A DNA stretch of 39,953 nucleotides from a virus. Its lineage: Duplodnaviria > Heunggongvirae > Uroviricota > Caudoviricetes. A program made the translations under genes and the position numbers. The notes beneath the pieces were generated by a model. That model was given only the letters and a program-made list of their open reading frames with translations, searched no databases and had not been told where the DNA came from. The DNA lies in IMG/VR virus record IMGVR_UViG_2563366923_000006, one strand, 5' to 3'. Below are positions 484-39,577 of this stretch, one piece after another (position 1 is the first letter of the stretch; the number at the start of each line of letters is the position of its first letter).

Positions 484-495
484 TTCATATTCTAT

Positions 496-3710: not shown

Positions 3711-3903
3711 AAAAAGGCCATTTCCATTCAGGGTCTGATGGAAATACTTCAGCCTGTTCCAAAGCACGGCGTAAAGAGAATACACCTCCAGCCATAATCT
3801 GATGTTTCCCATTGGTCCAGCTATCGCCGCTCTGATCTACAGGAGCGGCTATGTCGTATGACCAAACGACTTCACCACTATTGTTTAAAATCTGGACTTT
3901 CAT
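3628..3903 (-). CDS. Hypothetical small protein, second gene of early-left operon
   Basis: 91 aa; 8 bp downstream of the zinc-finger gene; GGAGG upstream. Confidence 0.4.
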   Translation of the reverse strand: MKVQILNNSGEVVWSYDIAAPVDQSGDSWTNGKHQIMAGGVFSLRRALEQAEVFPSDPEWKWPFSICPNSESTFQKIGQKVALEEHQPTVS

Positions 3904-3911
3904 TTTGTTCT

Positions 3912-4115
3912 TTAACCTCCAGATTTCCGCGCATCTAAAGGCGCATTCTCATTTGGTGTGAACTGAATAGTTGTGCTGATATTGATTAATGCCCCGACAC
4001 ACAAGACTACGCACTCAGAGCAGATAGCAACTTCATCTTTTCCGCCTTTGGCGATGATTTTTTTTGCCTGCAGCTCGTTTGCGCCACAAAACGAGCATGT
4101 GAAATAACGGTTCAT
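3912..4115 (-). CDS. Small ClpX-type zinc-finger protein (C4), first gene after the PL-like promoter
   Basis: CSFCG...CSEC motif closely matches the ClpX N-terminal zinc-binding domain signature (recalled). Confidence 0.5.
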   Translation of the reverse strand: MNRYFTCSFCGANELQAKKIIAKGGKDEVAICSECVVLCVGALINISTTIQFTPNENAPLDARKSGG

Positions 4116-4299
4116 TTGCGCTCTCTTACACATAGTATTTAACGAATCATCCGGTCATTCATACGCCACCGGCGGCTACTTCGTGTTCGTCCTGACTGTT
4201 CGTTTTTGACATTTACTGACCGCTTACGACACATGCACCATGCACCGTGTTGCAACTAGATTTTGTTGTAATCCTGTAGTTGGTCTGGAACAAAAGATA

Positions 4300-4350
4300 A
4301 AATTAAAATGCGATATACGCAAGTAATATTTTGCGAGATGTGCAAAATTA
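4300..4350. promoter_or_regulatory. OL/PL-like operator-promoter region (TGCGATATACGCA and TTGCGAGATGTGCAA elements)
   Basis: TTGCG/CGCAA half-site motifs shared with the cI-cro intergenic region. Confidence 0.4.
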
Positions 4351-4356
4351 TGGGTG

Positions 4357-4380
4357 ATAAAAAGCCACCTTTCGGTGGCC
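4357..4380 (-). terminator. Rho-independent terminator downstream of the repressor gene
   Basis: On the minus strand: GCCACC-GAAA-GGTGGC hairpin followed by TTTTT. Confidence 0.55.
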
Positions 4381-4399
4381 GATGGATGGGATATTGAAG

Positions 4400-5092
4400 T
4401 TAATTATGTCTCTTAAGGGTTTGCGACTGACTGATTAAGACCTTTCCAAAGACCATGAATCGGTGTTCGTTTTCGCTAGTAATTCCCCATTCACGGTAAA
4501 TCTGGTTATCAGAAATCACCAGCAGTTTGTCAGGAATCATTTGAAGTCTTTTAACGTATATTTTGTCATCAAAACCAAAGACATATATACCATCACCATC
4601 AAACTGATTGATGCTGACATCAACGAAGATGAGATCTCCTGGCTCAATGGTTGGACACATACTGTCCCCACGAACGTTGATAACTTTGATGTGATTGGCT
4701 GGTCGTCCGCCGAACATTGATACAGCATTATCAGTTCTGTATTCGATGGCATGAATCACATCAATGACATCACCGCCCTGGATAAGGCCATTTCCCGCAC
4801 TGGCACTGATATCCAACATTTCAATACGGAACACATCCTTCACCTGCGCAACATCCTCATCATTACTGTTTTTATATACAGTATTACTTTTGAGGGCAGA
4901 GGTAAAGAGATCAGCAATATCAACACCTAAGCTCTTGGCAATATTACTCAGTGTTTGTTCGGTAAATTGTTTCTGCTTACCCGTTTCTAAGCGCGAGATG
5001 TTCGCCGCATCTACTCCTATTGCTTCAGCGAGATCGGCGATTTTCATGTTCTTCGCTTGGCGAAGTTGTCTGACTCGTTTTCCTATGTTCAT
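4400..5092 (-). CDS. cI: CI-like phage repressor (XRE HTH + S24 LexA-like peptidase domain)
   Basis: N-terminal HTH; C-terminal S24-type domain; divergent from a Cro-like gene. Confidence 0.85.
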   Translation of the reverse strand: MNIGKRVRQLRQAKNMKIADLAEAIGVDAANISRLETGKQKQFTEQTLSNIAKSLGVDIADLFTSALKSNTVYKNSNDEDVAQVKDVFRIEMLDISASAGNGLIQGGDVIDVIHAIEYRTDNAVSMFGGRPANHIKVINVRGDSMCPTIEPGDLIFVDVSINQFDGDGIYVFGFDDKIYVKRLQMIPDKLLVISDNQIYREWGITSENEHRFMVFGKVLISQSQTLKRHN

Positions 5093-5189
5093 GCGTTTAT
5101 TACATTTCTTTATTGCGTGATAAGCAAATCAACTTGCGCAAAATACTTGCGTGAAATAACATGCATAACGCGCAATATTTGGAGGATAT
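5093..5189. promoter_or_regulatory. OR-like operator/promoter region between repressor and cro-like genes
   Basis: Repeated TTGCG(T/C) and CGCAA half-sites at 5113-5127, 5134-5141, 5148-5155, 5168-5175. Confidence 0.55.
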
Positions 5190-5450
5190 ATGCAATCACC
5201 ATTACGAAATGTGCGTAAGGCGCATGGTTTCACTTTGCAGCATGTTGCTGCGGGTGTTCAAGTCAATCCAGCGACGTTGAGTCGTATTGAGAGGCTGGAG
5301 CAGATTCCATCTATCGAGCTTGCAGAACGTTTAGCCAATTTTTTTAAGGGTGAAATCAGCGAAATGCAGATTCTTTATCCGGCACGTTTTCAATCTAGCC
5401 AAAACCAGAATGGGTTTAAACCACAGGAACAGGAGGTGAACCGTGGGTAA
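5190..5450 (+). CDS. Cro-like HTH regulator
   Basis: 86 aa XRE-type HTH; divergent from repressor; GGAGG SD. Confidence 0.7.
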   Translation: MQSPLRNVRKAHGFTLQHVAAGVQVNPATLSRIERLEQIPSIELAERLANFFKGEISEMQILYPARFQSSQNQNGFKPQEQEVNRG

Positions 5451-5994
5451 GCATCACTGGAAAATAGAAAAACAGCCTGAGTGGTACGTGAAAGCTGTCA
5501 GAAAAACTATCGCGGCGTTGCCGGGTGGTTACGCTGAAGCGGCTGATTGGCTCGATGTAACAGAAAACGCTTTATTCAACCGCCTTCGTGCAGATGGCGA
5601 TCAGATTTTCCCGCTGGGATGGGCAATGGTTTTACAGCGTGCTGGTGGCACTCACTTCATTGCTGATGCTGTGGCGCAGTCTGCAAATGGCGTATTTGTG
5701 TCTCTTCCTGACATCGAGGATGTGGACAACGCCGATATCAACCAACGCCTGCTGGAGGTCATTGAACAGATCGGCAGTTATTCAAAACAGATTCGTTCAG
5801 CAATTGAAGACGGTGTAGTGGAACCGCATGAGAAGACAGCAATTAACGATGAGCTGTACCTCTCAATTTCGAAGCTGCAGGAGCATGCAGCACTGGTCTA
5901 CAAAATCTTTTGCGTTTCAGAAAGTAGTGACGCCCGCGAGTGTGCAGCTCCGGGCGCCGTGGCGTGTCGTGACTGTGGAGAAACTAACGCATGA
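5443..5994 (+). CDS. CII-like phage regulatory protein (tentative), GTG start
   Basis: Position after cro; AGGAGG 6 nt upstream of GTG; family resemblance is from memory. Confidence 0.5.
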
Positions 5995-6329
5995 ACAGTT
6001 TAACAACACACTACCGTCGCTCGCAACTGATTGCGCTTCCTGTACCGGGTGGAAAAGCGAAGGTGGAGTATTGCTATGCAGTAAATGTACCAGGTGACAG
6101 GGTAATTGTAACCCACAGCTTTGCAGAGTGGGCTGTGGGTGATTTCAACCGGCAAAAGGAGACAGTCCTTTGCGACAAGTTAACCGCTGGTTCAAAGATC
6201 ACTACGGAGTGCCCGTCAGAGTCATTCGTTGGGAGCCGGAAACACAACGGGTTATCTACCTCCGCGAAGGCTATGAGTATGAGTGCTTCAGCCCGCTCGA
6301 ACAGTTTCGTCGTAAATTCAGGGAAATAG
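5991..6329 (+). CDS. Small ORF after cII-like gene; only the first ~60 codons look protein-like (tracked 112-aa ORF is probably over-extended)
   Basis: 3' half translates to S/A-rich junk while an alternate frame looks coding. Confidence 0.3.
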
Positions 6330-6349
6330 AGGTCGGTCATGAGCACTAA
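6170..6349 (+). CDS. Small protein (59 aa) from TTG start in alternate frame; may be the frameshifted 3' part of the preceding ORF
   Basis: AAAGGAG 7 nt upstream of TTG; protein-like translation ending [16 protein letters not shown]. Confidence 0.35.
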
Positions 6350-7280
6350 ATTAACCGGCTATGTATGGGATGGTTGCGCAGCGTCAGGCATGAAATTATC
6401 CAGCGTGGCAATTATGGCCCGCCTGGCTGATTTCAGTAATGACGAAGGTGTGTGCTGGCCATCAATTGAAACCATTGCCCGCCAGATTGGCGCGGGGATG
6501 AGTACCGTCAGAACGGCTATCGCACGGCTGGAAGCAGAAGGCTGGTTAACGCGTAAGGCGCGTCGCCAGGGTAACCGCAATGCGTCGAATGTTTATCAGC
6601 TTAACGTTGCGAAGCTTCAGGCAGCGGCATTTTCTCAACTGTCAGATTCTGACCCGTCAAAATCTGACGCATCAAAATCTGACCCGTCAAAATTTGATGC
6701 GTCGAAATCTGGCAAAAAAGCGGGTTTTCACCCGTCAGAATCTGGCGGGGATCCGTCAGTAAAATCAAAACATGATCCGTCAGATAAAAAACCTTCTCGT
6801 CCGGACGCTTCGCAACCGGACACGCAGACGGATGAACAGGATTTTTTAACTCGCCATCCTGATGCGGTTGTATTCAGCCCTAAAAAGCGCCAGTGGGGAA
6901 CGCAGGATGATTTGACCTGCGCACAGTGGCTCTGGAAAAAAATCATCGCCCTGTACGAGCAGGCTGCCGAATGTGACGGCGAGGTGGTTCGTCCCAAAGA
7001 ACCGAACTGGACAGCCTGGGCAAACGAAATTCGCCTGATGTGTGTGCAGGATGGTCGTACTCACAAACAAATCTGCGAGATGTACAGCCGCGTCAGCCGC
7101 GATCCGTTCTGGTGCCGTAACGTGCTCAGCCCGTCGAAGCTGCGGGAAAAATGGGATGAGCTTTCCCTGCGCTTATCGCCGTCCGTCAGCACATACACAG
7201 AAAAACGTGAAGATCCGTACTTCAAATCCAGTTACGACAACGTGGACTACAGCCAGATCCCGGCAGGATTCAGGGGGTGA
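6339..7280 (+). CDS. Replication initiator, O-like (N-terminal winged-helix HTH, DnaT-like C-terminal region)
   Basis: Position after cII; N-terminal HTH pattern; contains internal iteron-like repeats. Confidence 0.7.
   Translation: MSTKLTGYVWDGCAASGMKLSSVAIMARLADFSNDEGVCWPSIETIARQIGAGMSTVRTAIARLEAEGWLTRKARRQGNRNASNVYQLNVAKLQAAAFSQLSDSDPSKSDASKSDPSKFDASKSGKKAGFHPSESGGDPSVKSKHDPSDKKPSRPDASQPDTQTDEQDFLTRHPDAVVFSPKKRQWGTQDDLTCAQWLWKKIIALYEQAAECDGEVVRPKEPNWTAWANEIRLMCVQDGRTHKQICEMYSRVSRDPFWCRNVLSPSKLREKWDELSLRLSPSVSTYTEKREDPYFKSSYDNVDYSQIPAGFRG
6645..6790. repeat. Iteron-like direct repeats (C(C/G)RTCRAAATCTG units, ~7 copies) inside the O-like gene; putative origin
   Basis: Copies at about 6653, 6669, 6683, 6699, 6730, 6754, 6776; followed by an A-rich stretch. 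Confidence 0.55.
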
Positions 7281-7771
7281 TCATGAGTCTTTTGAATGAA
7301 GTTCAGAAATTCATTAAAGCCCATCCGGGGTGTACTTCCGGAGACATTGCGGATGCTTTTGCAGGTTACTCACGGCAGCGCGTTCTGCAGTCAGCAAGCA
7401 AGTTACGTCAGAGTGGGCGTGTGGCTCACCGTTGTGAAGGAGATACACGCAGACATTTCTCGCGCCTGACTGAGAGAGCGCAGGAGCCGGAACCACAACC
7501 AGTTCGTGAAACCAGACCTGTGCGCAAGTTCTATGTCGGCACTAACGACCCCCGGGTGATTTTGTGCCTGACCCGCCAGGCTGAAGAACTGGAGTCCAGG
7601 GGCTTATACCGTCGTGCTGCAACGGTGTGGATGGCGGCATTCCGTGAAAGCCATTCCCAGCCAGAACGAAACAATTTTCTGGCGCGTCGTGAGCAGTGTT
7701 TACGGAAAAGCAGCAAGCGCGCTGTATCGAGTGATGAGTGGTATCTGTCAGGGAATTACGTGGGGGCGTAA
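7277..7771 (+). CDS. Hypothetical phage protein, possibly regulatory
   Basis: 164-aa ORF translationally coupled to neighbours. Confidence 0.5.
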   Translation: MIMSLLNEVQKFIKAHPGCTSGDIADAFAGYSRQRVLQSASKLRQSGRVAHRCEGDTRRHFSRLTERAQEPEPQPVRETRPVRKFYVGTNDPRVILCLTRQAEELESRGLYRRAATVWMAAFRESHSQPERNNFLARREQCLRKSSKRAVSSDEWYLSGNYVGA

Positions 7772-8097
7772 TGACGACGTTAACTCAATGCCAGCAGCAG
7801 GTGCTGGATATGCTGATTTCTTACCAGAAAGAACGTGGCTTCCCGCCAACCAATCAGGAGGTGGCAACCATGCTGGGATACCGTTCGGTGAATGCAGCGG
7901 TGGAGCATCTTCGAGCACTGGAGAAAAAAGGCGTCATCACGATAAAGCGTGGCGTGGCCCGGGGGATAACGCTTCATACCGCGATGAAGGACGACGACAG
8001 CGAGGCGGTCGGGATTATCCGCGCACTGCTTGCCGGTGAGGAAAACAGCAGGCTGCGTGCAGCCCACTGGTTACATGAGAGGGGCCTGAAAGTATGA
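7771..8097 (+). CDS. LexA N-terminal DNA-binding-domain-like protein without peptidase domain
   Basis: MTTLTQCQQQVLDMLISYQKERGFPPTNQEVATMLGYRSVNAAVEHLRALEKKGVI resembles the LexA winged-helix domain; TAATG coupling. Confidence 0.6.
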   Translation: MTTLTQCQQQVLDMLISYQKERGFPPTNQEVATMLGYRSVNAAVEHLRALEKKGVITIKRGVARGITLHTAMKDDDSEAVGIIRALLAGEENSRLRAAHWLHERGLKV

Positions 8098-8483
8098 AGC
8101 TGATTCTGCCTTTTCCGCCCAGTGTGAACACGTACTGGCGACACCCCAACAAAGGGGCATTTGCTGGTAAGAGCCTGATAAGCGAGGCGGGGCGAAAATT
8201 TCAGAGCGCGGCGTGTGCCGCCATCATTGAGCAGTTACGTCGTCTGCCGAAACCAACGTCGGCACCTGCTTCAGTGGAGATCGTGTTGTTTCCTCCGGAT
8301 AACCGGATCCGCGATCTGGACAACTATAACAAGGCGCTGTTTGACGCCCTGACCCACGCGGGTGTGTGGGAAGACGACAGTCAGGTGAAAAGAATGCTGG
8401 TTGAGTGGGGACCGGTTATCCCGGGAGGGAAGGTCGAGATCACTATCAGTAAGTACGAGAAAACGGCGGGTGCAGCCGCCTGA
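8094..8483 (+). CDS. rusA: RusA Holliday-junction resolvase
   Basis: LPFPPSVNTYWRH ... RDLDNYNKALFDALT motifs typical of RusA. Confidence 0.85.
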   Translation: MKLILPFPPSVNTYWRHPNKGAFAGKSLISEAGRKFQSAACAAIIEQLRRLPKPTSAPASVEIVLFPPDNRIRDLDNYNKALFDALTHAGVWEDDSQVKRMLVEWGPVIPGGKVEITISKYEKTAGAAA

Positions 8484-8502
8484 TCAAGAGGAGAAACGAA
8501 GT

Positions 8503-9312
8503 ATGAATAATCTGATGGTCATTGATGGTATTGAAGTTCGTCGTGATGCTTATGGGCGTTACAGCCTGAACGATCTGCATCGCGCAGCAGTAGCATCTGG
8601 TGCAAATGCCAGAACCAAGGAGCCAGGAAAGTTTCTTTCCAGCCAACAAACTGTTGAGCTTGTTCATGAATTAACCAACACCCAGAATTTGGGTGTTGAC
8701 CCGGTGAGTGTGATTCATGGGGGAAATGAACGGGGAACGTATGTCTGTAAGGAACTGGTGTATGCCTATGCAATGTGGATCAGCCCGTCATTCCATCTGA
8801 AGGTGATCCGTACTTTCGATATGGTAACCAGCGCACCGGAAAAATTATCCGGACAGGCTGCTGACAAGATGCAGGCTGGCGTGATTCTGCTGGACTTTAT
8901 GCGCCGGGAGTTAAATCTGTCTAACTCATCTGTGCTTGGGGCCTGTCAGAAACTCCAGGAGGCTGTTGGCTTACCGAATCTGGCACCGCGCTATGCCATT
9001 GATGCACCTGCTGACGCGCCTGATGGCTCAAGCCGCCCGACGCTGTCGCTGAGTGCACTGCTGAAGCAGTATGGTATCCGCCTGACGGCTAATCAGGCAT
9101 ATCACCAGATGGTGAAGCTGGGGATCGTCGAGCAGCGCGAACGATACAGCCGTACCGGGATTAACAACATCAAAAAATTCTGGTCGCTGACGGCGAAAGG
9201 CTGCATGTTCGGCAAGAACATCACCAGTCCCGCAAATCCGCGTGAGACGCAGCCGCATTTCTTCGAATCCCGATTCCCTGAGCTGTTAAAGCTGCTCGAT
9301 ACCGTTCATTGA
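8503..9312 (+). CDS. KilA-N domain protein (antirepressor-like)
   Basis: N-terminal KilA-N-like pattern; AAGAGGAG SD; internal ATG chosen over the longer tracked ORF. Confidence 0.65.
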   Translation: MNNLMVIDGIEVRRDAYGRYSLNDLHRAAVASGANARTKEPGKFLSSQQTVELVHELTNTQNLGVDPVSVIHGGNERGTYVCKELVYAYAMWISPSFHLKVIRTFDMVTSAPEKLSGQAADKMQAGVILLDFMRRELNLSNSSVLGACQKLQEAVGLPNLAPRYAIDAPADAPDGSSRPTLSLSALLKQYGIRLTANQAYHQMVKLGIVEQRERYSRTGINNIKKFWSLTAKGCMFGKNITSPANPRETQPHFFESRFPELLKLLDTVH

Positions 9313-9313
9313 G

Positions 9314-10309
9314 GTGACCGTGAGAGCACTACTGACCCCTGAAATAGCCCCGCGTATGGGGATTGTATTGTTCAGACCAGGTTCAGAGCTGATGCCCCTG
9401 TTTATGCAGGGGCGTGTCCTGCTGGAGCCTGAGCCGGAACGTTATTCATCTTTCGCCAGTGGTGCCGTTCCGGCGGCATCACAACCGCTGGCGGATGATC
9501 CTGCCGTTAGGGCCGTGTTCCGCAATGAGGCAGTGATCCGTCGTGCTGGTGGCGTGGAATGTCTTGAAAGCTGGTTACTTCGTGAAAAAGGCTGCCAGTG
9601 GCCTCATTCCGACTGGCACAGCGAGAACATGACCACAATGCGACACGCGCCGGGCGCGATCCGTCTGTGCTGGCACTGCGATAACCAGCTGCGCGATCAG
9701 TTCACGGAACGGCTGGAATCAATGGCAACGGATAACTGTGCCCGCTGGGTGTTGTCTGTAGTCCGTCGGGATCTCGGTTTTGATGATAACCATGCCGTGA
9801 CAATGCCGGAACTGTGCTGGTGGTTGATTCGTAATGACCTGGCGGATGCCTTACCGGAAAGTGCAGCCCGTAAGGCACTGAGATTACCGAAGCCTGTTGT
9901 GCCGTCTGTCACCCGGGAAAGTGACCTTGTGCCTTCGGTTCCTGCCACCAGCATCATCCAGGATAAGGCGAAAAAGGTGCTGGCGCTGAAAGTGGATCCG
10001 GAGTCGCCGGAGTCTTTTATGTTACGCCCAAAACGCCGCCGCTGGGTTAATGAAAAGTACACGCGCTGGGTTAAGACACAGCCGTGTGCATGTTGTGGAA
10101 AGCCTGCTGATGATCCCCACCACCTGATAGGCCACGGTCAGGGTGGAATGGGTACAAAAGCGCATGACCTCTTTGTGTTGCCTTTGTGCAGAAAGCATCA
10201 CGACGAGCTGCATGCGGATACCGTGGCATTTGAAGAGAAGTATGGCTCTCAGCTGGAGCTGATATTTCGTTTTATCGATCGTGCGCTGGCAATTGGCGTA
10301 TTGGCGTAA
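9314..10309 (+). CDS. DUF968-like phage protein with C-terminal HNH-like Cys/His motifs
   Basis: CACCGK...HHLIGHG...LCRKHHDELH at C-terminus; GTG start. Confidence 0.65.
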   Translation: MTVRALLTPEIAPRMGIVLFRPGSELMPLFMQGRVLLEPEPERYSSFASGAVPAASQPLADDPAVRAVFRNEAVIRRAGGVECLESWLLREKGCQWPHSDWHSENMTTMRHAPGAIRLCWHCDNQLRDQFTERLESMATDNCARWVLSVVRRDLGFDDNHAVTMPELCWWLIRNDLADALPESAARKALRLPKPVVPSVTRESDLVPSVPATSIIQDKAKKVLALKVDPESPESFMLRPKRRRWVNEKYTRWVKTQPCACCGKPADDPHHLIGHGQGGMGTKAHDLFVLPLCRKHHDELHADTVAFEEKYGSQLELIFRFIDRALAIGVLA

Positions 10310-10322
10310 GTGGAGAACGAGC

Positions 10323-11075
10323 ATGAACCTTGAAGCCTTACCAAAATATTACTCCCCAAAATCTCCAAAATTGAGCGATGACGCACCGGCGACAGGCTCA
10401 GGTGGTTTAACGATTACGGATGTGATGGCTGCGCAGGGGATGGTGCAGTCGAAAGCACCGCTTGGGTTTGCCTTATTCCTGGCAAAAGTTGGTGTTCAGG
10501 ATCCTCAATTTGCGATTGAAGGTCTGCTCAATTACGCGATGGCACTGGATAACCCGACATTGAACAAATTGAGTGAAGAAACCCGGTTACAGATCATCCC
10601 TTACCTTGTGAATTTTGCCTTTGCTGATTATTCCAGGTCTGCGGCAAGTAAGGCTCGCTGTGAGCATTGTGCTGGTACTGGATTTCATAATGTATTGCGC
10701 GAAGTGGTGAAACACTCCAGAAGCGGGGAATCTGTTATCAAGGAAGAGTGGGTGAAGGAACTATGTCAGCATTGTCATGGTAAGGGAGAAGTCAGCACAG
10801 CGTGCAGAGGGTGTAAGGGTAAAGGTATTGTCCTGGATGAAAAAAGGACCCGGCTTCATGGCACGCCTGTTTATAAGATTTGTGGGCGTTGCAATGGAAA
10901 CCGGTTTAGCCGTTTACCAACCACACTGGCGCGGCATCATGTCCAGAAGCTGGTACCAGACCTGACGGATTATCAGTGGTACAAAGGATATGCAGATGTC
11001 ATTGATAAACTGGTTACAAAGTGCTGGCAGGAAGAAGCATATGCAGAGATACAATTGAGAAAGGTGACAAGATAA
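10323..11075 (+). CDS. Putative late-gene antiterminator (Q-like) with four CxxCxGxG zinc-finger repeats
   Basis: Position just upstream of the late promoter; CEHCAGTG, CQHCHGKG, CRGCKGKG, CGRCNGNR repeats. Confidence 0.55.
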   Translation: MNLEALPKYYSPKSPKLSDDAPATGSGGLTITDVMAAQGMVQSKAPLGFALFLAKVGVQDPQFAIEGLLNYAMALDNPTLNKLSEETRLQIIPYLVNFAFADYSRSAASKARCEHCAGTGFHNVLREVVKHSRSGESVIKEEWVKELCQHCHGKGEVSTACRGCKGKGIVLDEKRTRLHGTPVYKICGRCNGNRFSRLPTTLARHHVQKLVPDLTDYQWYKGYADVIDKLVTKCWQEEAYAEIQLRKVTR

Positions 11076-11106
11076 ATGGTTTTCGCCGAAGATGACGACA
11101 TGATGC

Positions 11107-11135
11107 TTGCATTTTTCAAAAAATATGGATAAGAT
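11107..11135 (+). promoter_or_regulatory. Late promoter candidate (TTGCAT-N17-TAAGAT)
   Basis: Near-consensus -35/-10 with 17-bp spacer immediately after the Q-like gene. Confidence 0.5.
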
Positions 11136-11182
11136 TTTCCCAACGATGGGCTTTGTATGTCTACCGTTGATAAGATTTAGGA

Positions 11183-11206
11183 ACCCGCCACTGAGCGGGT
11201 TTTTTG
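11183..11206 (+). terminator. Rho-independent terminator downstream of late promoter (tR'-like)
   Basis: ACCCGC-CACTGA-GCGGGT hairpin followed by TTTTTT. Confidence 0.65.
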
Positions 11207-11327
11207 TACCTGTAAACTTGGTGCAGTACAGTAAACACGCTGGTGGTCGTGAATACTGACTTTTTATCTTGCTGGATTTTTAGACAAGAGTTATTGGTAT
11301 GTCATGTTAACCAGAAGGGAAAAAGAC

Positions 11328-11531
11328 ATGCTAAAACAGCAAGATATGACAGAAACCGCCGCCGCAGTCCTTCATTTCTTACCTGCTGACAAGTGGGTAA
11401 CGCCACGCATGATGACGAGAACTACCGGAGTAAGCGAAGCCCGGTGCCAGTTAATACTGACTCAGTTAGTTCTGGCGGGTCTGGCGAAGGATAACGGCGG
11501 GTACGGGAATAAATTCAGACGCTGCCAGTAA
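11328..11531 (+). CDS. Hypothetical small protein
   Basis: AAGGGA upstream of internal ATG; 67 aa. Confidence 0.4.
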   Translation: MLKQQDMTETAAAVLHFLPADKWVTPRMMTRTTGVSEARCQLILTQLVLAGLAKDNGGYGNKFRRCQ

Positions 11532-11681
11532 TGGCGGTTTCCTGCTGTGAAAATGGGCGGCTGGTGGGTGTTGGTAGCACCTGCCAGCCATTCGCTCATG
11601 CTTACTGGTCACAAGCGAACCACGGCCCACTGCTTTAGCGCAAAAGCAGAGTGAGCCTACCAGAGTTACGCTTACTGATCC

Positions 11682-12734
11682 ATGAAAAATACTGTAAAAA
11701 TAAACAGTGTTGATTTAATCAACGCTGATTGCCTGCATTTTATTCAGTCCCTGCCTGATGATTCCATTGACCTGATTGTTACCGATCCGCCTTACTTCAA
11801 GGTGAAACCTAACGGTTGGGACAATCAGTGGAAAGGGGACGAAGATTACCTTAAGTGGCTGGACCACTGTCTGGCCCAGTTCTGGCGGGTGTTGAAACCT
11901 GCCGGAAGCCTTTACCTGTTCTGTGGGCATCGCCTGGCATCTGATATTGAGATCATGATGCGTGAACGTTTCAACGTGCTTAACCATATCATCTGGGCGA
12001 AGCCGTCCGGACGTTGGAATGGGTGTAATAAAGAAAGTCTGCGCGCATATTTTCCTGCCACAGAGCGCGTTCTGTTTGCTGAACATTACCAGGGGCCATA
12101 TCGCGGCAAAAGTGACGGCTATGCGGCAAAAGAAAGGGAACTCAAACAGCACATAATGGCACCGCTGATATCGTATTTCAGGGATGCTCGTGCCGAACTG
12201 GGTATAACGGCAAAACAAATTGCCGAAGCCACAGGTAAGAAAAATATGGTTTCCCACTGGTTTGGTGCCAGTCAGTGGCAGTTGCCGAATGAGGCTGACT
12301 ATCGGAAGTTACAGGCACTGTTTTCCCGTATAGCGGCAGAGAAGTTTCAGGAACAACAACTGGAACAACCACACCACCAGCTGGTGGCATCTTATGATTC
12401 ACTGAATCGCAAATATTCTGAATTGCTGGATGAGTTTAAATCTCTCCGGCGCTATTTCTCCGTATCAGTTTCCGTGCCTTATACCGATGTCTGGACGCAT
12501 AAGCCCGTTCAGTTCTATCCGGGTAAACATCCGTGCGAGAAACCGGCGGATATGCTCCGGCAAATAATCAATGCCAGTAGTCGACCTGGTGATCTGGTTG
12601 CTGATTTCTTTATGGGATCCGGTTCCACAATAAAAGCAGCAATGGCGCTGGGGCGTCGGGCGTTAGGTGTTGAACTTGAGTCAGAGCGGTTTAATCAGAC
12701 GGTGAAAGAGGTAAGTGAACTGGTGGGGAAATAA
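11682..12734 (+). CDS. Orphan DNA N6-adenine/N4-cytosine methyltransferase (DPPY motif)
   Basis: IVTDPPY motif and later FxGxG; no adjacent restriction gene. Confidence 0.8.
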   Translation: MKNTVKINSVDLINADCLHFIQSLPDDSIDLIVTDPPYFKVKPNGWDNQWKGDEDYLKWLDHCLAQFWRVLKPAGSLYLFCGHRLASDIEIMMRERFNVLNHIIWAKPSGRWNGCNKESLRAYFPATERVLFAEHYQGPYRGKSDGYAAKERELKQHIMAPLISYFRDARAELGITAKQIAEATGKKNMVSHWFGASQWQLPNEADYRKLQALFSRIAAEKFQEQQLEQPHHQLVASYDSLNRKYSELLDEFKSLRRYFSVSVSVPYTDVWTHKPVQFYPGKHPCEKPADMLRQIINASSRPGDLVADFFMGSGSTIKAAMALGRRALGVELESERFNQTVKEVSELVGK

Positions 12735-28090: not shown

Positions 28091-28116
28091 ACCTTACATT
28101 AATTTATGTCTTTCAT

Positions 28117-28139
28117 GCCCACTTCGGTGGGCTTTTTTA
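28117..28139 (+). terminator. Rho-independent terminator after moron
   Basis: GCCCAC-TTCG-GTGGGC followed by TTTTTT. Confidence 0.75.
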
Positions 28140-28153
28140 TATCCGGAGTTTAT

Positions 28154-29524
28154 ATGACGTGGAAAGACAGGCTTCAGGACGCGTCATTTCGCGGTGTGCC
28201 GTTTAAGGTTGAAGAAGAAAGTGCGGGAACAGGTCGCCGTGTGGAAACACACGAATATCCGAACCGCGACAAACCCTATACCGAAGATCTGGGAAAAGTC
28301 ACTTTCCGCCCGTCCATCACGGCTTATGTGGTGGGCGATGACTGCTTTGACCAGCGCGATCGCCTGATTGACGCGCTGAATAAACCCGGTCCCGGCACGC
28401 TTGTCCACCCGACTTACGGTGAGCTGAAAGTCTGTGTTGACGGAGAGGTTCGGGTCAGCACATCGAAAAGTGAAGGGCGTATTGTCCGCTTTGACCTGAA
28501 GTTTGTCGAAGCGGGAGAACTCTCTTACCCCACATCAGGTGCGGCGACGGCGCAGACGCTGATGTCATCCTGTTCTGCACTGGATGACTGCATCAGTGAC
28601 AGCTTCAGCGGTTTCAGTATCGATGGTGTGGCGGATTTCGTGCAGAACGACGTTATCGGTAATGCCAGCATAATGCTGGGGTATGTTTCTGATGCGATGA
28701 AAGTGGTGGATTCTGCCGTATCGGATGCCGCCAGGCTGTTGCAGGGGGATATCTCGGTACTTCTGCCGCCGCCATCGTCAGGCAAAAATTTCGTTGAGCA
28801 GGTGCAGAAAATGTGGCGTACCGGGAAACGCCTTTATGGTAACGCCAGCGACCTGGTCACCATGATCAAAACGCTTTCCGGTGTCAGCCTCGGCAGCGAT
28901 CTGCAACCGCGCGGCGTCTGGAAAACGGACAGTAAAACCACCGCCACGGCGACGCAGCAGCGTAACGTGGTTGCCAGCACCCTTCGTGCGACCGCAATCA
29001 GCGAAGCGGCGTATGCCGTCACCCGATTGCCTGCGCCAACAACTTCCGCGGTGATGCAGAATGCCGCAGTGGGGCAGTCAACAACTTCCGCGGTGATGCA
29101 GAATGCCGCAGTGGGGCAGTCAACAACTTCCGCGCAGAGCACCGGCTGGCCTTCCGTCACGCATCCGGCACTGAACAATGCACCGGCGGTGAAAAACACG
29201 GTTGACCTGCCAACGTGGGAAGAACTGACTGACATTCGCGACACACTGAATACGGCAATTGATAAGGAGTTGTCCCGTACAACCAGTGATGCGCTGTTTC
29301 TGGCGCTGCGCCGGGTGAAAGCAGATCTGAATGCGGATATCAACACGCGCCTTGAACAGTCTGCTCGGATCATTCAGCGCACGCCGGATGAGGTCTTACC
29401 CGCGCTGGTGCTGGCGGCGACCTGGTTTGATAACGCGGCGCGTGACGCGGACATTATCCGGCGTAATGCCATTACGCATCCCGGCTTTGTGCCGGTGATC
29501 CCTCTGAAGGTGCCAGTGCAATGA
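28154..29524 (+). CDS. DNA circularization protein N-like (Mu gpN-type tail protein)
   Basis: N-terminal MTWKDRLQDASFRGVPFKVE pattern; GGAG SD. Confidence 0.75.
   Translation: MTWKDRLQDASFRGVPFKVEEESAGTGRRVETHEYPNRDKPYTEDLGKVTFRPSITAYVVGDDCFDQRDRLIDALNKPGPGTLVHPTYGELKVCVDGEVRVSTSKSEGRIVRFDLKFVEAGELSYPTSGAATAQTLMSSCSALDDCISDSFSGFSIDGVADFVQNDVIGNASIMLGYVSDAMKVVDSAVSDAARLLQGDISVLLPPPSSGKNFVEQVQKMWRTGKRLYGNASDLVTMIKTLSGVSLGSDLQPRGVWKTDSKTTATATQQRNVVASTLRATAISEAAYAVTRLPAPTTSAVMQNAAVGQSTTSAVMQNAAVGQSTTSAQSTGWPSVTHPALNNAPAVKNTVDLPTWEELTDIRDTLNTAIDKELSRTTSDALFLALRRVKADLNADINTRLEQSARIIQRTPDEVLPALVLAATWFDNAARDADIIRRNAITHPGFVPVIPLKVPVQ
29037..29134 (+). repeat. In-frame 42-bp tandem duplication (2.3 copies) encoding repeated TTSAVMQNAAVGQS
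   Basis: Two perfect 42-bp copies (29037-29078, 29079-29120) plus 14-bp partial third. Confidence 0.9.
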
Positions 29525-33866: not shown

Positions 33867-34310
33867 ATGAATCTTAAATATTTTTCTCCATCTGAAAATG
33901 CGTTTTATGCCGGGGAGCTTAAAGAAAGCTATATCGCTGCTGGCTCATGGCCTTCTGATGCCTCGGAGGTTGATGAAAGTCTTTATCTTGAGTTTATCGA
34001 TAAACCGCCAGCAGGTAAGTATCGAGGAGTGGATAATGCAGGAATGCCCTGCTGGCTTGAAATTCCTCCTCCCACAGTAGAGGAAATGGCATCGAATGCA
34101 GAGAATATAAGACAGCAGCTCATTGATAAGGCAAATGTTTATATAAACAATCGTCAGTGGCCGGGAAAAGCAGCGATAGGCCGTTTAAAGGCAGATGAAC
34201 TGGAACGATATAACCTTTGGCTGGATTATCTGGACGCACTGGAACTGGTCGATACTTCCGGTGCGCCAGATATTGAATGGCCTACGCCTCCGGCAGCTCA
34301 GGCCAGATGA
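33867..34310 (+). CDS. Tail fibre assembly protein (Tfa)
   Basis: C-terminal LDYLDALELVDTS-APDIEWP motif. Confidence 0.75.
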   Translation: MNLKYFSPSENAFYAGELKESYIAAGSWPSDASEVDESLYLEFIDKPPAGKYRGVDNAGMPCWLEIPPPTVEEMASNAENIRQQLIDKANVYINNRQWPGKAAIGRLKADELERYNLWLDYLDALELVDTSGAPDIEWPTPPAAQAR

Positions 34311-34884
34311 CATCCGGCGCGGTGCTGGTATCCGTTGCCGTCACCGCGTCAATGTAATCCAGCACAGCGTTTAATCGGGTGGTTTCTGTCTGCGTCAGCT
34401 TCCTCCCGGCCTGCAATTTCAGTTGAATCAGACTAATGGAAGCCATTGCAGTATCAATCAGTGACTGACGCTGTGCTTCTGCCGCGCTTACTGCGGCGCT
34501 ATGCTGTGCCTCAGTATCTGTCACCCATTTCTCACCATCCCATTTATCGTATGGCGTTAACGGGGCGATAGTGGTTGTATTTTCGGGGTAATCACCCAGA
34601 GCTGTGATTTCTTTGGCGTCTCCCGTTTCGGTGTTATAGACGATTTCACCGCGATGGTCTGGCACATATTCCCATGAGTTTAAATCTGCCGAACGGCAGA
34701 TTGCATAACCAGCCTTATGTATACCAGGTTCATCCAGACAGGAATATGCCGGGATACCAACACCAACGGCAAGATATTCATTTGAAGTGGAAATATATTC
34801 CCGAGTTTCACCATCATAGCTATAGACGGTAATATCCCCCGCCTTCGTGGCAATAAGCTCGCTATTTAATACAGCGTTATCCAT
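34282..34884 (-). CDS. Alternative tail fibre assembly protein (Tfa')
   Basis: Shares C-terminal LDYIDAVTATDTSTAPDVIWP motif with Tfa. Confidence 0.75.
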   Translation of the reverse strand: MDNAVLNSELIATKAGDITVYSYDGETREYISTSNEYLAVGVGIPAYSCLDEPGIHKAGYAICRSADLNSWEYVPDHRGEIVYNTETGDAKEITALGDYPENTTTIAPLTPYDKWDGEKWVTDTEAQHSAAVSAAEAQRQSLIDTAMASISLIQLKLQAGRKLTQTETTRLNAVLDYIDAVTATDTSTAPDVIWPELPEA

Positions 34885-35349
34885 TATGCAGCCCTCACGA
34901 TAAAGTTAAATGCAATATTTCGCGCACGTGTTTCCGTTGATGTTCTGGCAACAAGTGATGCATCAAAATAATAATTCGCCTGTTTATATGTACCACCTGT
35001 CGCAATTGGTGTGAGATTTGGTTGCACTATTGAAGAGGTAAATGCGCCGAAAGTATTATTATTTGTCCCCGTGGTCATATCAAAAAAGCTACCTGTAATA
35101 TTTTGCAGCGTATCGCTCTGAGCACTCAATAACGCTCGCCCACTGTCCACTCCACGCCCATCATCCCAGCCACGAATAAACTCACCCCGCAGATCTGGCA
35201 GCACAAGACCGGGGTAAACCAGTGCCAGCTTCGGATAATTTTCAGCTGCAAATGGAGCGCCGTTACATTTCAGCCATCCTGTTGGTGGAGTGGCTAAAGG
35301 CCACGGAACAGGCACACCAACGGGTAATGCCGAACCTTCTCCCAAACCA
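34884..35349 (-). CDS. Alternative tail-fibre C-terminal cassette (Sv'), expressed only after inversion
   Basis: Begins at crossover (INVGLGEGSA); LPDLRGEFIRGWDDGRG tail-collar-like motif. Confidence 0.65.
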
Positions 35350-35362
35350 ACGTTTATGAAAA
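35337..35362. repeat. Invertase crossover site, right (CCAAACC-AA-CGTTTAT)
   Basis: Reverse complement matches left site around the TT core. Confidence 0.65.
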
Positions 35363-35416
35363 TGCAGAAATAGCGCGCAAATGGCATCGTTCCTGTTTTT
35401 GTCAGGAGGAGCTATC

Positions 35417-35973
35417 ATGCTTATTGGCTATGTTCGCGTATCAACAAATGACCAGAACACCGATCTACAACGTAATGCGTTGAACTGTGCAGGATGTGAG
35501 CTGATTTTTGAAGACAAGATAAGCGGTACAAAGTCCGACAGACCAGGACTGAAAAAGCTGCTCAGGACATTATCGGCAGGTGACACGCTGGTGGTCTGGA
35601 AACTGGACCGACTGGGGCGCAGTATGCGGCATCTTGTCGTGCTGGTGGAAGAGTTGCGCGAACGTGGCGTTAATTTTCGCAGCCTGACGGATGCTATTGA
35701 TACCAGCACACCAATGGGGCGCTTTTTCTTTCATGTGATGGGTGCCCTGGCTGAAATGGAGCGAGAGTTTATTGTCGAACGTACTAGGGCGGCTTTGCCG
35801 CAGCACGACAAGAAGGGAGGAACGGTGGGCGAAAGCCAAAGCTGACAGTAGAACAATGGGGGCAGGCTGGCAGGTTGATTGAATCGGGAATATATCAGCA
35901 GCAAGTCGCACTGATTTATGATCTGGGTATTTCAACGGTGTATAAAAAATTCCCTGTAGCAAGTAAACCATAG
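35417..35973 (+). pseudogene. Serine DNA invertase (Pin/Gin/Hin family), apparently frameshifted, separating the catalytic domain from the C-terminal HTH
   Basis: Catalytic domain intact to ~35790, then premature stop at 35845; the +1 frame continues as a Gin-like HTH (PKLTVEQWGQAGRLIESGI...) to 35973. Confidence 0.65.
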
Positions 35974-35999: not shown

Positions 36000-36695
36000 T
36001 TATGCACTATTTTTAGGTCTTGTAACCCGAGGTGGGAGTTGTTTGGTTATATGTTCAAGTGATTTTTTGCCCAAGATAGTTCTTTGGACAAAACTTTCTA
36101 TAGCTTCTAGCATTTGTTCGAACTCACTTTTATTCGGGCTCCAACTGCGATGTGCGGCGGCGTTTCCTGCATCAATTACTGAAGATATAACGCATGCCTC
36201 AGTGTCGCCTATGACTCCATCTTGTTTTAATTTTTCAACTTTTTCACCAAGCGGCAAACCGGGGTGAATTTGTAACAGTTCAGCAGTTCGATCAAAAATC
36301 GTCCGTAAACCGATGGACGAAAGAATGAAATGGTCAGAAGTATATGAAGAATACATTTCATTAAATATTTGAAAGAGCTGACGATCAACTGATTCAAGCT
36401 TGGATAACCATATCGGAGCTTGAAATGTTTCAGCGGCAGGATAGGTAGTGATCATATCTATAGGCGTTTCTACAAATTCACCATCACGATATTCGTGGGT
36501 AGTATGCTCACTGAAGTGTTCGTTGTGGTGATAGAAGACAGTATCACAGCCATTGCATTGGAGTAGGTGATGGTAATGGTACCCATAAACTGGATATTGG
36601 GAATCCTCCCAGCTAGTGGTTAGCTTCCCATGCACAGTGCAGTTACGTAACCCACCGCATGTAGGGCAAAGAGCCTTGAGTATTTCCTTTTTCAT
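36000..36695 (-). CDS. Cargo protein: N-terminal zinc ribbon (CxxC...CxxC) plus C-terminal helical domain resembling DUF4145
   Basis: Cys pairs C10/C13 and C47/C50; C-terminal GDTEACVISSVIDAGNAAAH resembles the DUF4145 GNxxAH motif (recalled); AT-rich. Confidence 0.55.
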   Translation of the reverse strand: MKKEILKALCPTCGGLRNCTVHGKLTTSWEDSQYPVYGYHYHHLLQCNGCDTVFYHHNEHFSEHTTHEYRDGEFVETPIDMITTYPAAETFQAPIWLSKLESVDRQLFQIFNEMYSSYTSDHFILSSIGLRTIFDRTAELLQIHPGLPLGEKVEKLKQDGVIGDTEACVISSVIDAGNAAAHRSWSPNKSEFEQMLEAIESFVQRTILGKKSLEHITKQLPPRVTRPKNSA

Positions 36696-37043: not shown

Positions 37044-37292
37044 TTAGTGAACAAACCACTCGTCAGCAGATTCCCAGGTATCTTTCAGAGTCTCCTGAAC
37101 AAAAGTTTTTGCAGAATCCTTATCTGCGGTGCGTGTAACAGAAAGGCCATCATTGCTGGTGGCTTTTACTAACACCTCAACATCGTCATAACGCTTACTG
37201 ATGCGTCGGGTTAATTCTTCCTTTAACGCATCCACAGCACCGGTTGGCATTTTAGTCATTTTTTCTTTGGCTATGCAGATTTCAATACGCAT
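37044..37292 (-). CDS. dinI: DinI-like DNA-damage-inducible protein
   Basis: MRIEICIAK ... [11 protein letters not shown] matches the DinI family pattern; GGAGGG SD. Confidence 0.8.
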
Positions 37293-37353: not shown

Positions 37354-38451
37354 TCAAGAGGTCTTATTTCTGCTCCTTTGGAGCTCTTCAAAACGATTAT
37401 GTAAAGATTTCGGATACAGTTCGGTATATACCTGCCATAGCACGTTTAATGAACGATGCCCTGTAACTTGGGCGACTTCCTCAATACTAAAACCAGCCTC
37501 AAATAAGCGACTTGCCCCTTCTCTACGCAAATCATGGTATCGCAGATCCTTAATACCTAATTTGCTTCTTACTCTCTGAAATCCCGCAGTAACAGAAGTG
37601 CTGTTATATGGAAAAATGAATTCCGATTTTTGGGGCTGTCGTTGGACGATATCCCAGGCTTCCCCAAGCAAGGCTACTTTCATGTGGTTACCTTCCTTTT
37701 TGCGTGGATCTTTCCTGTCTCTTACGAGTATAGATTTTTGTTCCTGGTCGAGATCTTCCCATCGTAACCGGCATACTTCTCCGATTCGCATACAGGACCA
37801 TACAGAAAATTTGAGGATATCAACGAACGGAATTTTTGAGCATTTATGAGTAGATCGTTGTTGAAGGCCTGCAATGAGCATGTCCAGTTCATCAGATGCT
37901 GGTCTACGATTACGACGGTTTGATTTACCAATCAAACCAAGTTTAAGTAGATATGGGCGAGCGCTTTTCGCCGGGTTTGATGTGTAATTAATTCCGTATA
38001 CAGGTTTGGCCGCATCCAGAACACTGCCAAGATAACTAACATCGTGGCTGACTGTTGCAGGACCTGCACCAGCGTTGTTTCTTAGCCTGCAATGTTCAAT
38101 TACGTCATTTTCTGTCAGTTCAGATAGTTTGATCGCGGAGATGTCACTATCCATAAGCAGTTCCAGCACATATCTTTTAGTACGGCCTGCTTTACCTCCG
38201 GCATTTGGGTCATTTAAATATTTGTGTAGTAAGTCACGGACTGTAAGTCCGTCAACTGCATTTGATGATGGAATGCCATATAGATCTAATTCCATCACTT
38301 TCTGTGTGCCCCATGTTTTGGCATGAGCATGTTTAGGGAATGTTTTGCTTTCCCTGTAAGTGATAACACCTTTTTCTTTGATAATCACATTACAGCGATA
38401 GCGTGGTGTGCCATCGGATTTTAGTCGTTTCTCTATGTTATAGTACGCCAT
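37354..38451 (-). CDS. int: Tyrosine integrase (dusA-associated type)
   Basis: 365 aa with C-terminal catalytic motifs (HDLRR ... VTGH ... Y); abuts dusA. Confidence 0.9.
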   Translation of the reverse strand: MAYYNIEKRLKSDGTPRYRCNVIIKEKGVITYRESKTFPKHAHAKTWGTQKVMELDLYGIPSSNAVDGLTVRDLLHKYLNDPNAGGKAGRTKRYVLELLMDSDISAIKLSELTENDVIEHCRLRNNAGAGPATVSHDVSYLGSVLDAAKPVYGINYTSNPAKSARPYLLKLGLIGKSNRRNRRPASDELDMLIAGLQQRSTHKCSKIPFVDILKFSVWSCMRIGEVCRLRWEDLDQEQKSILVRDRKDPRKKEGNHMKVALLGEAWDIVQRQPQKSEFIFPYNSTSVTAGFQRVRSKLGIKDLRYHDLRREGASRLFEAGFSIEEVAQVTGHRSLNVLWQVYTELYPKSLHNRFEELQRSRNKTS

Positions 38452-38468
38452 TACACGACCTCGTTATT

Positions 38469-38505
38469 TCGGGTTCCCATAAAACGTGGGAACCTGTGCG
38501 GGAAC
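38469..38505. repeat. Three copies of a 9-bp GGGAACC-containing motif (one inverted) in the int-dusA intergenic region
   Basis: CGGGTTCCC 38469-38477, GTGGGAACC 38486-38493, GCGGGAACC 38498-38505. Confidence 0.5.
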
Positions 38506-38539
38506 CTAACGCGAGAAAAATAGCCTGAAATGTTCAAAA

Positions 38540-39577
38540 ATGCACGATAATCATGAAACACAAAAAATTAATCAAACCAGCGTGATGCCTGAAAAAACTG
38601 GTGTTTACTGGAATTCTCGGTTTAGCATTGCTCCTATGCTCGACTGGACGGACAGACATTGCCGCTATTTCTTGCGTCTGCTTTCCCGCAATACGTTGCT
38701 GTATACTGAAATGGTAACTACAGGGGCGATTATTCACGGTAAAGGTGATTACCTGGCGTATAGTGAAGAAGAACATCCGGTAGCGTTGCAACTCGGCGGT
38801 AGCGATCCGGCGGCGCTGGCGCAGTGTGCGAAGCTGGCAGAAGCGCGTGGATATGATGAGATCAACCTGAATGTCGGCTGCCCGTCTGACCGGGTGCAGA
38901 ACGGCATGTTTGGTGCGTGTCTGATGGGTAATGCGCAGCTGGTTGCCGACTGCGTGAAAGCGATGCGCGATGTGGTGTCGATTCCGGTGACGGTGAAAAC
39001 GCGTATTGGCATCGACGACCAGGACAGCTATGAATTTCTCTGCGATTTCATCAACACCGTTTCCGGCAAAGGCGAGTGTGAGATGTTCATCATCCATGCA
39101 CGTAAAGCCTGGCTTTCGGGGTTAAGTCCGAAAGAAAACCGTGAGATCCCGCCGCTCGATTATCCGCGTGTGTATCAACTGAAGCGTGACTTTCCGCATC
39201 TGACAATGTCGATTAACGGTGGTATCAAGTCGCTGGAAGAGGCCAAAGCACACCTGCAACATATGGATGGCGTGATGGTCGGGCGCGAGGCGTATCAGAA
39301 TCCGGGTATTCTGGCGGCGGTAGACCGGGAGATCTTTGGTTCCTCGGATATCGATGCCGATCCGGTGGCGGTAGTGCGCGCCATGTATCCGTACATTGAG
39401 CGTGAACTCAGCCAGGGGACGTATCTCGGTCATATTACCCGGCATATGTTGGGCTTGTTCCAGGGTATTCCTGGCGCGCGGCAGTGGCGGCGTTATTTAA
39501 GTGAAAATGCCCATAAAGCGGGTGCAGACATTAATGTGCTGGAACACGCGCTCAAACTGGTGGCGGATAAGCGTTAA
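38540..39577 (+). CDS. dusA: tRNA-dihydrouridine synthase A; 5' end probably element-derived
   Basis: 345 aa typical DusA; first ~35 codons AT-rich unlike the rest of the gene. Confidence 0.9.

Follow-up and report, generated by a model that had tools for sequence, protein, structure and literature searches.

The int-proximal attachment junction of a dusA-integrated Escherichia coli prophage: a phage-donated dusA 5' end and candidate integrase arm-type sites

Introduction

How can a phage integrate into a protein-coding gene and leave that gene intact, and which sequences flanking the junction would its integrase recognize? This question is raised by the 39,953-nt stretch of Escherichia coli DNA that was analysed here in its entirety (hereafter the window), in which a tyrosine integrase gene (int) diverges from an uninterrupted dusA gene that is followed by pspG. 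A preliminary description of the locus had proposed that an integrase-encoding element replaces the 5' end of dusA, and that GGGAACC motifs repeated between the two genes represent integrase arm sites and/or serve in the control of int.

Architecture of the int-dusA locus and its encoded proteins

The int gene (positions 37354-38451, minus strand), an ORF encoding a 365 aa tyrosine integrase (Int) of the dusA-associated integrase (DAI) group, directly adjoins and diverges from the intact, in-frame ORF of a hybrid dusA gene (38540-39577, plus strand; 345 aa). As had been described, the two genes are separated by 88 bp, the spacer corresponding exactly to positions 38452-38539. The G+C content was shown to be 0.426 for int, 0.455 for the spacer and 0.375 for the first 96 nt of dusA, compared with 0.54 for the rest of the gene, by which the transition from some 35 AT-rich dusA codons to a GC-rich gene body, noted earlier, could be placed at codons 33-35.

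The catalytic domain of Int was identified at residues 188-346 (Pfam PF00589, E=8e-21), and identities of 98-99.5% were observed with the Int proteins of phages mEp460, SKA5, Lys8385Vzw and PhiR47_1 and, by tblastn, of 31-35% with integrases from phage records of Pseudomonas and Acinetobacter. An AlphaFold2 model with a mean pLDDT of 84 could be aligned with full-length lambda Int structures over 358-371 columns at ~17% identity, and revealed an additional N-terminal β-β-β-α unit at residues 2-58; the isolated N-terminal domain retrieved no significant Foldseek match. At E≤10, Pfam gave a weak hit to Int_N (residues 72-165) as its sole match in the N-terminal region and left residues 1-60 unassigned, and a comparison of the Int sequence with the PDB returned catalytic-domain matches only.

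At the prophage end opposite int, a gene encoding a 90 aa PrtN-family protein (496-768, minus strand; Pfam PF11112, E=1.5e-22) was identified as a candidate excisionase gene, its mEp460 homologue being annotated as excisionase. The prophage in the window also encodes a Mu-like contractile tail with an invertible tail-fibre module.

Delineation of the attachment sites and the common core

The junction was examined in a four-way comparison of attR (in the window), attL (in strains T309.Ta3 and 730V1), attP (in mEp460 and SKA5) and empty attB alleles. Alignment of attP, both attB types, attL and attR revealed a sole stretch that is identical across all of them, ATGCTCGA, located at positions 38636-38643 (plus strand) within dusA codons 33-35 and representing the common core, i.e. 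the strand-exchange region. In the window, attR reads CATTGCTCCTATGCTCGACTGGACGG, while intact attB alleles carry ...ATGCTCGACTGG... with a native 5' end. In the packaged phage genomes mEp460 and SKA5, attP was found to be contiguous (...CATTGCTCCTATGCTCGATAGGATGTACCG...) beside an int gene of 98-99% identity, such that int, a dusA' fragment and the left-end sequence constitute a single unit. The attP and host sequences diverge from position 38644 onward, reading TAGGATG and CTGGACG, respectively.

The other end of the prophage, as read in T309.Ta3 and 730V1, lies ~730 nt to the left of window position 1, where the copy of the core that had been anticipated to the left of the window was indeed located. 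In both strains, attL consists of a displaced native dusA 5' fragment that is joined to phage DNA at ATGCTCGA. In T309.Ta3, this fragment is a native B2-type dusA start (...GATTGCCCCGATGCT followed by TGATAGGATGTACCG), attL reading GATTGCCCCGATGCTTGATAGGATG; in 730V1, it is a K-12-type start (...GTTGCACCAATGCTCGA followed by TAGGATGTACCG), attL reading GTTGCACCAATGCTCGATAGGATG. The left end of the T309.Ta3 prophage is identical to window positions 1-2646 with the exception of one mismatch and diverges beyond, while 730V1 exhibited 98.8% identity over 92% of window positions 1-12000 and a dusA junction that is 100% identical to that of the window. The 730V1 prophage is split, with IS26 copies and an inverted left part, which suggests an IS26-mediated rearrangement.

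attL is known here from related strains and not from the genome to which the window belongs; the collection of complete genomes included no record that matches the window end to end, and no direct repeat of the core that would represent attL was found within the window. With attL taken from these relatives, the insertion was observed to lie in the 5' end of dusA between semi-conserved direct repeats (attL and attR), as in DAI elements, in which these repeats span ~21 bp.

Two further observations bear on the point of exchange. The attL core of T309 carries a C-to-T change, and the F-type plasmid pEND_Eco18005 harbours the same prophage at a secondary site, in a parB-like gene, with junctions located immediately after TGC. 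The element end in this plasmid matches the window up to position 38639, the secondary-site junction falling after ATGC. Taken together, the T309 variant and the plasmid junctions confine one of the points of exchange to the ATGC/T side.

In our assessment, the best overall explanation, and one that is probably correct, is that window positions 38452-38660 represent attR, the int-proximal junction of a lambdoid, Mu-tailed prophage of ~39-39.4 kb with an integrase of the mEp460/1720a-02 type.

A phage-supplied 5' end in the hybrid dusA gene

Since ATGCTCGA is the only sequence common to the four sites, the dusA segment upstream of it (38540-38635, plus strand, codons 1-32) is phage supplied, and the sequence from 38644 onward (to 39577, plus strand) is host derived. 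The former segment, with its low G+C content, matches attP exactly in SKA5 over the region shown and closely in mEp460, while the latter is marked by its similarity to K-12 and its divergence from attP. Of the differences from K-12 dusA, 18 fall within the first 96 nt of the gene, compared with 14 over the other 942 nt, and the last of the clustered differences is at position 38635; from 38636 onward, the gene is 98.5% identical to that of K-12 (928/942 nt). The 5' end is accordingly not identical to that of uninterrupted alleles, and the proposal that the element replaces it is borne out by the comparison of attL, attP, attB and attR. The replacement is in frame, and the hybrid product is a recognizable DusA, matching the Pfam Dus family at E=2e-104 and the NCBIfam DusA equivalog at 559 bits (cutoff 269).

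To place the junction in a wider context, a 701-nt junction query was compared with 5426 complete E. coli genomes, all of which matched in one of three patterns. The int-dusA arrangement of the window was present in 742 of the genomes (13.7%). Most of the sampled remainder were of the K-12 type, which matches only from window position 38537 onward, and a minority were of the B2 type, in which dusA directly adjoins zur and the match begins only at 38627. The B2-type allele exhibits a clean break at 38627-38635 and is unalignable before ~38627. The K-12-type allele, conversely, is 81% identical to the phage-supplied segment over its first 96 nt (86/104 including the core), and a naive comparison with it consequently yields scattered mismatches without a clean break.

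This resemblance is the one point in favour of the notion that the AT-rich dusA start is native to E. coli, with an integrase gene beside it by chance or an att site elsewhere, since K-12-type alleles align from 38537 at ~94% over the query tested, much like allelic variants; that notion is refuted by the attL/attP/attB comparison and is practically untenable, given the excess of differences in the first 96 nt, the match of the segment to phage attP and to no empty allele, and the native 5' fragments found displaced to attL in two strains. A tRNA gene as the att site, raised in the preliminary description, was likewise rejected, as ARAGORN detected neither a tRNA nor a tmRNA gene in the window and the core lies in dusA.

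In this explanation, the prophage entered E. coli dusA by site-specific recombination within codons 33-35. The incoming attP holds its own dusA start, ending at the 8-bp core that it has in common with attB, and integration fuses this phage copy in frame to the host gene body, by which dusA stays intact. The original dusA 5' end, together with its promoter, ends up ~39 kb away at attL.

Candidate arm-type sites on both arms of attP

The three GGGAACC copies reported for the spacer, one of them inverted, were confirmed at positions 38472-38478 (minus strand), 38488-38494 (plus) and 38500-38506 (plus). They form the centre of TGGGAACCT-type 9-mers that precede the int start codon by 19-59 bp. 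The inverted copy, ATGGGAACCCG (38470-38480, minus strand), is nearest to int, and is followed by two direct copies, GTGGGAACCTG (38486-38496, plus strand) and GCGGGAACCTA (38498-38508, plus strand), which are 12 bp apart. All three are designated here as candidate arm-type Int sites, based on the motif and on the relatives described below. Only two further GGGAACC copies occur in the window, and the total of five is close to the 4.6 expected by chance; the clustering in the spacer is non-random: three copies within 35 nt were observed in none of 2000 Markov simulations of the window, and any 7-mer occurring at least three times was observed in 24 of 5000 shuffles of the 88-nt spacer.

In attP, the motif is also found across the core from these copies. 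The P' arm contains GTGGGAGCCTA and TTGGGAACCTG, 11 bp apart and 44-61 bp beyond the core, within the stretch TTTGTGGGAGCCTATTGGGAACCTG; the corresponding GGGAGCC and GGGAACC words begin 44 and 55 nt after the core. Three copies are thus located 128-171 bp from the core on one side and two at ~50 bp on the other, spanning ~235 bp in total, and these repeats, present on both attP arms, are distinct from the core sequence.

To explore the conservation of this arrangement, integrase relatives were scanned using one genome per species, which yielded 80 loci. Among these, 59 were dusA-linked, defined as having dusA P-M-[LMIV]-D codons 164-197 nt from the int start, and they represent many gammaproteobacterial genera. 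A tandem 8-mer pair at a spacing of 10-13 bp was identified in 52 of the 59 (compared with 60 of 1180 shuffles), the spacing being 12 bp in 37 loci and 11 bp in 12, with a median start at +37 from the int ATG. The pair was also present in all 20 relatives that are not linked to dusA. A pair accompanied by an inverted copy nearer to int was observed in 26 of the 59 relatives and in a single one of the 1180 shuffles; that the inverted copy is present in just these 26 counts against an arm-site reading.

The words themselves vary: the tandem pairs of the dusA-linked relatives comprise 37 distinct 8-mers, and the same layout with a different word was found in phages of other genera whose integrases are 51-68% identical. 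The arm words are TGGGGTGCT in Yersinia YeP1, TGGTGTCCT in Morganella IME1369_02, TGGGGTGCT and TGGGGTyCT in Klebsiella Kp4884-1, AGGGTGACT in Pseudoalteromonas C5a and a GGGGCACC-like word in Shewanella M16-3, and in these five other genera the repeats were likewise shown to be present on both attP arms. Conserved position combined with lineage-specific sequence is what is predicted for arm sites of the lambda type, which are specific to their protein.

From this comparative evidence we infer that the GGGAACC repeats are most likely the contact points of the phage integrase on the arm DNA. The three spacer repeats would most likely be P-arm sites for the N-terminal domain of Int, and together with the two P' copies they would constitute a lambda-like attP of ~235 bp. 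The presence on both arms and the conserved layout therefore lend comparative support to the role in arm binding and/or int control that had been suggested for these repeats.

An alternative function for the GGGAACC repeats, as operators for a regulator (a repressor or excisionase) of int and/or the hybrid dusA gene instead of arm sites, must also be considered. The repeats are flanked by a conserved promoter-like element on one side and the int start codon on the other, and sets of inverted plus direct repeats are typical of operators as well. However, the motif recurs across the core in attP, at lambda-like distances, in sequence that is ~39 kb removed, at the opposite end, in the prophage; it varies with the integrase lineage, while its position is fixed; and the model of Int includes an additional N-terminal β-β-β-α domain that may correspond to those by which arm sites are bound. 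An operator function in place of arm binding is consequently regarded as improbable, and the two roles are in any case not mutually exclusive.

A bipartite element and phased A-tracts between the arm sites and the core

Beyond the candidate arm sites, a bipartite, promoter-like element, GTGCAT-N17-TATTTT, was identified at positions 38517-38545 on the minus strand, i.e. the int strand. The window contains no second copy of it, with 0.01 copies expected by chance, and its GTGCAT part (38540-38545) is the reverse complement of ATGCAC at the annotated dusA start. The element was found in 38 of 39 enterobacterial relatives and phages that have ATGCAC at this location, including loci that are not dusA-linked. 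ATGCAC itself precedes the Pro codon of the P-M-L-D motif, which adjoins the core, by exactly 93 nt in 24 of 24 enterobacterial dusA-linked relatives, in the same frame and with no intervening stop codon; as several of these 24 loci lack an internal Met codon, ATGCAC is probably the real start codon there. In Xenorhabdus relatives without dusA linkage, the element is retained and the reading frame closes after 2-8 codons in most cases, which argues for a DNA signal that does not depend on a coding role.

Following integration, int is severed from all upstream phage genes, and its promoter must therefore be located in the interval that holds this element. GTGCAT-N17-TATTTT represents a candidate for this promoter (Pint), with TATTTT located 8-9 nt upstream of the arm sites. 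Int bound at the arm sites just downstream would then probably repress transcription of int.

The same interval contains a block of phased A-tracts (AAAAATAG, GAAATG, AAAAATG, GATAAT, GAAAC and AAAAAATT; 38512-38570), situated between the arm sites and the core. The periodicity of these tracts is marginal in the window (shuffle P=0.04); in the relatives, P≤0.05 was obtained for 26 of 59 loci and P≤0.01 for 11 of 59, with a median period of 10.35 bp. The block could bend DNA or bind the PrtN-type excisionase.

It is accordingly possible, if somewhat less than evenly probable, that GTGCAT-N17-TATTTT and the A-tracts together constitute tandem sites for a PrtN-type excisionase or a host bending protein, comparable to the Xis/IHF/Fis region of the lambda P arm, and not a promoter. 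The block occupies the position between arm sites and core where the P arm of lambda has its Xis and IHF sites, and the T/A-tracts recur with a ~10.35 bp phase in 26 of 59 relatives. GTGCAT is moreover a poor -35 hexamer, far from TTGACA, and a strict sigma-70 promoter and terminator scan of positions 38300-38700 returned nothing. Against this, the integrated int gene needs a promoter in exactly that interval, and TATTTT at a fixed spacing of 17 bp represents classic promoter geometry. Promoter activity of GTGCAT-N17-TATTTT, with autoregulation of int and bending of the intervening DNA, is what we infer from these considerations.

Possible origin of the K-12-type dusA start

The K-12-type dusA start, which is the annotated reference start and, it seems, the most frequent type in complete E. 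coli genomes, was compared with ends supplied by elements of this kind. Its first 104 nt were shown to be identical at 86-89 of 104 positions to the element-supplied ends of E. coli, Kosakonia, Phytobacter and Pluralibacter. K-12 dusA carries ATGCAC, and by eye TATTTT is located 16 nt from GTGCAT on the int strand instead of 17. Between zur and dusA, K-12 harbours a 1.6-kb yjbL/yjbM (DUF2713) insert, and the native 5' fragment found beside zur in B2-type strains is missing from K-12. In the K-12 zur-dusA region, tblastn and sensitive blastn searches detected no integrase relic or other phage DNA, the only match being a 113-nt dusA 5' segment (84%), and alignment of K-12 with the P arm did not extend further than ~8 nt upstream of the start codon of dusA.

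It is plausible but unproven, on this sequence comparison, that the K-12-type start is a fossil attR of an old element of this kind. The opposite direction of transfer, with a host end of the K-12 type copied by phages, may also account for the resemblance. If the fossil reading is combined with the preceding observations, attP could be viewed as a compact dual-purpose control region in which Int regulates its own synthesis, GTGCAT doubles as the donated start and the K-12 dusA start is one of its relics. In that combination, which we consider rather doubtful as a whole, the DNA signal appears to be older than its coding use.

Implications

As the module is common in E. coli, the finding mainly serves correct annotation: the 5' 96 nt of dusA in a lysogen is phage DNA, and is unsuitable for typing hosts or inferring their phylogeny. 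A defined substrate for use of this integrase as a genetic tool is provided by the 8-bp core together with the ~235-bp attP and its candidate arm sites. Were the K-12 start a relic, the annotated N-terminus and the promoter of dusA, a well-studied tRNA-modification gene of E. coli, would be of mobile-element origin.

Comparison with known systems

The central finding, insertion into dusA with donation of a new 5' end, is an already known and experimentally characterized system. DAI elements enter dusA at its 5' end, between attL and attR repeats of 21 bp that are semi-conserved, and provide the gene with a replacement 5' end (Farrugia et al. 2015, NAR 43:4547, PMC4482086), which includes the first β-strand of the TIM barrel (PMC4482086); Escherichia DAIs are listed as a clade of the family (Farrugia et al., PMC4482086). 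The window has in common with these elements a tyrosine integrase gene divergent from dusA, the 5'-end insertion and the donated end, and differs from them in no essential respect. Added here are the arm repeats, the fixed int-core distance with its 93-nt start-codon spacing, the bipartite element that also supplies the donated start codon and the possible element origin of the K-12 start. The term 'arm-type sites' does not occur in Farrugia et al. 2015 (PMC4482086), and nothing relevant on arm-type sites of dusA integrases was found in the literature searched. The P' copies, the conserved layout with a lineage-specific motif and GTGCAT-N17-TATTTT, which were not encountered in that literature either, are offered as comparative predictions.

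For phage 1720a-02, integration 100 bp into dusA of Citrobacter rodentium was established experimentally (PMC6328086), the core comprising 7 bases and attP, attL and attR having been sequenced (PMC6328086), and excision was demonstrated (PMC6328086). Together with the contiguous attP of the packaged mEp460 and SKA5 genomes, this lends indirect support to excision of the present prophage as a circle, which would restore attP and an intact attB. The int and dusA' DNA of 1720a-02/Phi-stx2dact (KF030445.1) and mEp460 (NC_019716) is 97.4-98.1% identical to that of the window, the value for 1720a-02 (H65) being 97.4% across int and dusA'. The remainder of these genomes is mosaic relative to the window, which carries the Mu-like contractile tail and invertible tail-fibre module and not an Stx module.

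The system resembles lambda in the predicted three-domain architecture of Int, in encoding a separate small candidate excisionase, and in a P arm of ~170 bp and a P' arm of ~60 bp with repeated sites that are unrelated to the core. Unlike in lambda, the core is located inside a protein-coding gene, attP carries a coding replacement segment, and phased A-tracts may substitute for IHF. Moreover, int is transcribed away from attP, which lies directly upstream of it, and int and xis are consequently found at opposite ends of the prophage.

Integrase attachment sites and dusA junctions

The attL core of strain T309.Ta3 (locus L005:8265-8272) reads ATGCTTGA, as against ATGCTCGA. The base that varies is on the phage side of the exchange and helped to place one crossover point within ATGCT. 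A secondary insertion site was identified in the F-type conjugative plasmid pEND_Eco18005 (NZ_CP126947.1), in which a parB-like gene holds a prophage of ~41 kb with the int/attP module of the window. Both junctions of this prophage (L099:6790-6880 and 48180-48215) are positioned directly after TGC and, when compared by eye, 13 of 21 positions were common to this site and the dusA attB (TGC...AC.GGAC.G).

Integrase relatives located away from dusA, in Xenorhabdus and others (loci L041, L046-L052 and L037), were shown to retain the tandem arm repeats and the invariant GTGCAT-N17-TATTTT element, and in most of these the ORF opened by ATGCAC stops after two to eight codons.

The same ATGCAC, a signature of the element, opens the K-12-type dusA 5' end (L001:1504-1607), which shares 86-89 of 104 nt with the ends supplied by elements in four genera (E. 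coli, Kosakonia, Phytobacter and Pluralibacter). In the zur-to-dusA region of E. coli K-12 (L006:2630-4420), a yjbL/yjbM insert of 1.6 kb stands in place of the native 5' fragment, which is still present beside zur in B2-type strains, and searches of this K-12 interval for an int relic using tblastn and sensitive blastn returned none. The K-12-type dusA 5' end may represent a fossil attR.

Split prophage of 730V1 and the serine invertase of the window

E. coli 730V1 (NZ_CP061764.1; loci L015 and L014) matches the window at 100% across the dusA junction, and its prophage was found in two pieces. The int end is located at 4.606 Mb, beside copies of IS26, which also interrupt the invertase gene, while the left part of the prophage is located at 4.726-4.741 Mb on the opposite strand. 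The split prophage, the IS26 copies at the int end and the reversed orientation of the left part together suggest an IS26-mediated inversion of ~130 kb.

In the window itself, the serine invertase ORF (35381-35845, considered together with 33867-35387), which we read as Pin/Gin-like, ends early, being listed at 154 aa compared with 187 aa for its homologues in SKA5 and the plasmid-borne prophage. The C-terminal part is missing, and a resolvase N-terminal domain represents the sole Pfam match of the ORF. As this shortened invertase ORF adjoins oppositely oriented tail-fibre and tail-fibre-assembly genes, the invertible host-range switch of the window prophage is probably frozen.

Repeats, cargo genes and related phages

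Six iteron-like repeats of ~15 bp each (TCAAAATCTGACxCG) were identified at 6627-6749, within an ORF (6339-7280) whose homologue in the plasmid-borne prophage has an annotation as helix-turn-helix domain protein. The arrangement resembles a lambdoid origin that lies inside the replication-initiator gene. A perfect, in-frame 42-bp tandem duplication (14 codons; 29037-29120) is present in the ORF at 28106-29524, which by its position is the counterpart of the gene for the DNA circularization protein in the related plasmid-borne prophage. Between the invertase and int, two cargo genes encode a DUF4145 protein of 231 aa (36000-36695) and a DinI-like protein of 82 aa (37044-37292), the latter forming a DinI-int pairing that is also found in the related phages mEp460 and SKA5 and in the prophage copy of pEND_Eco18005.
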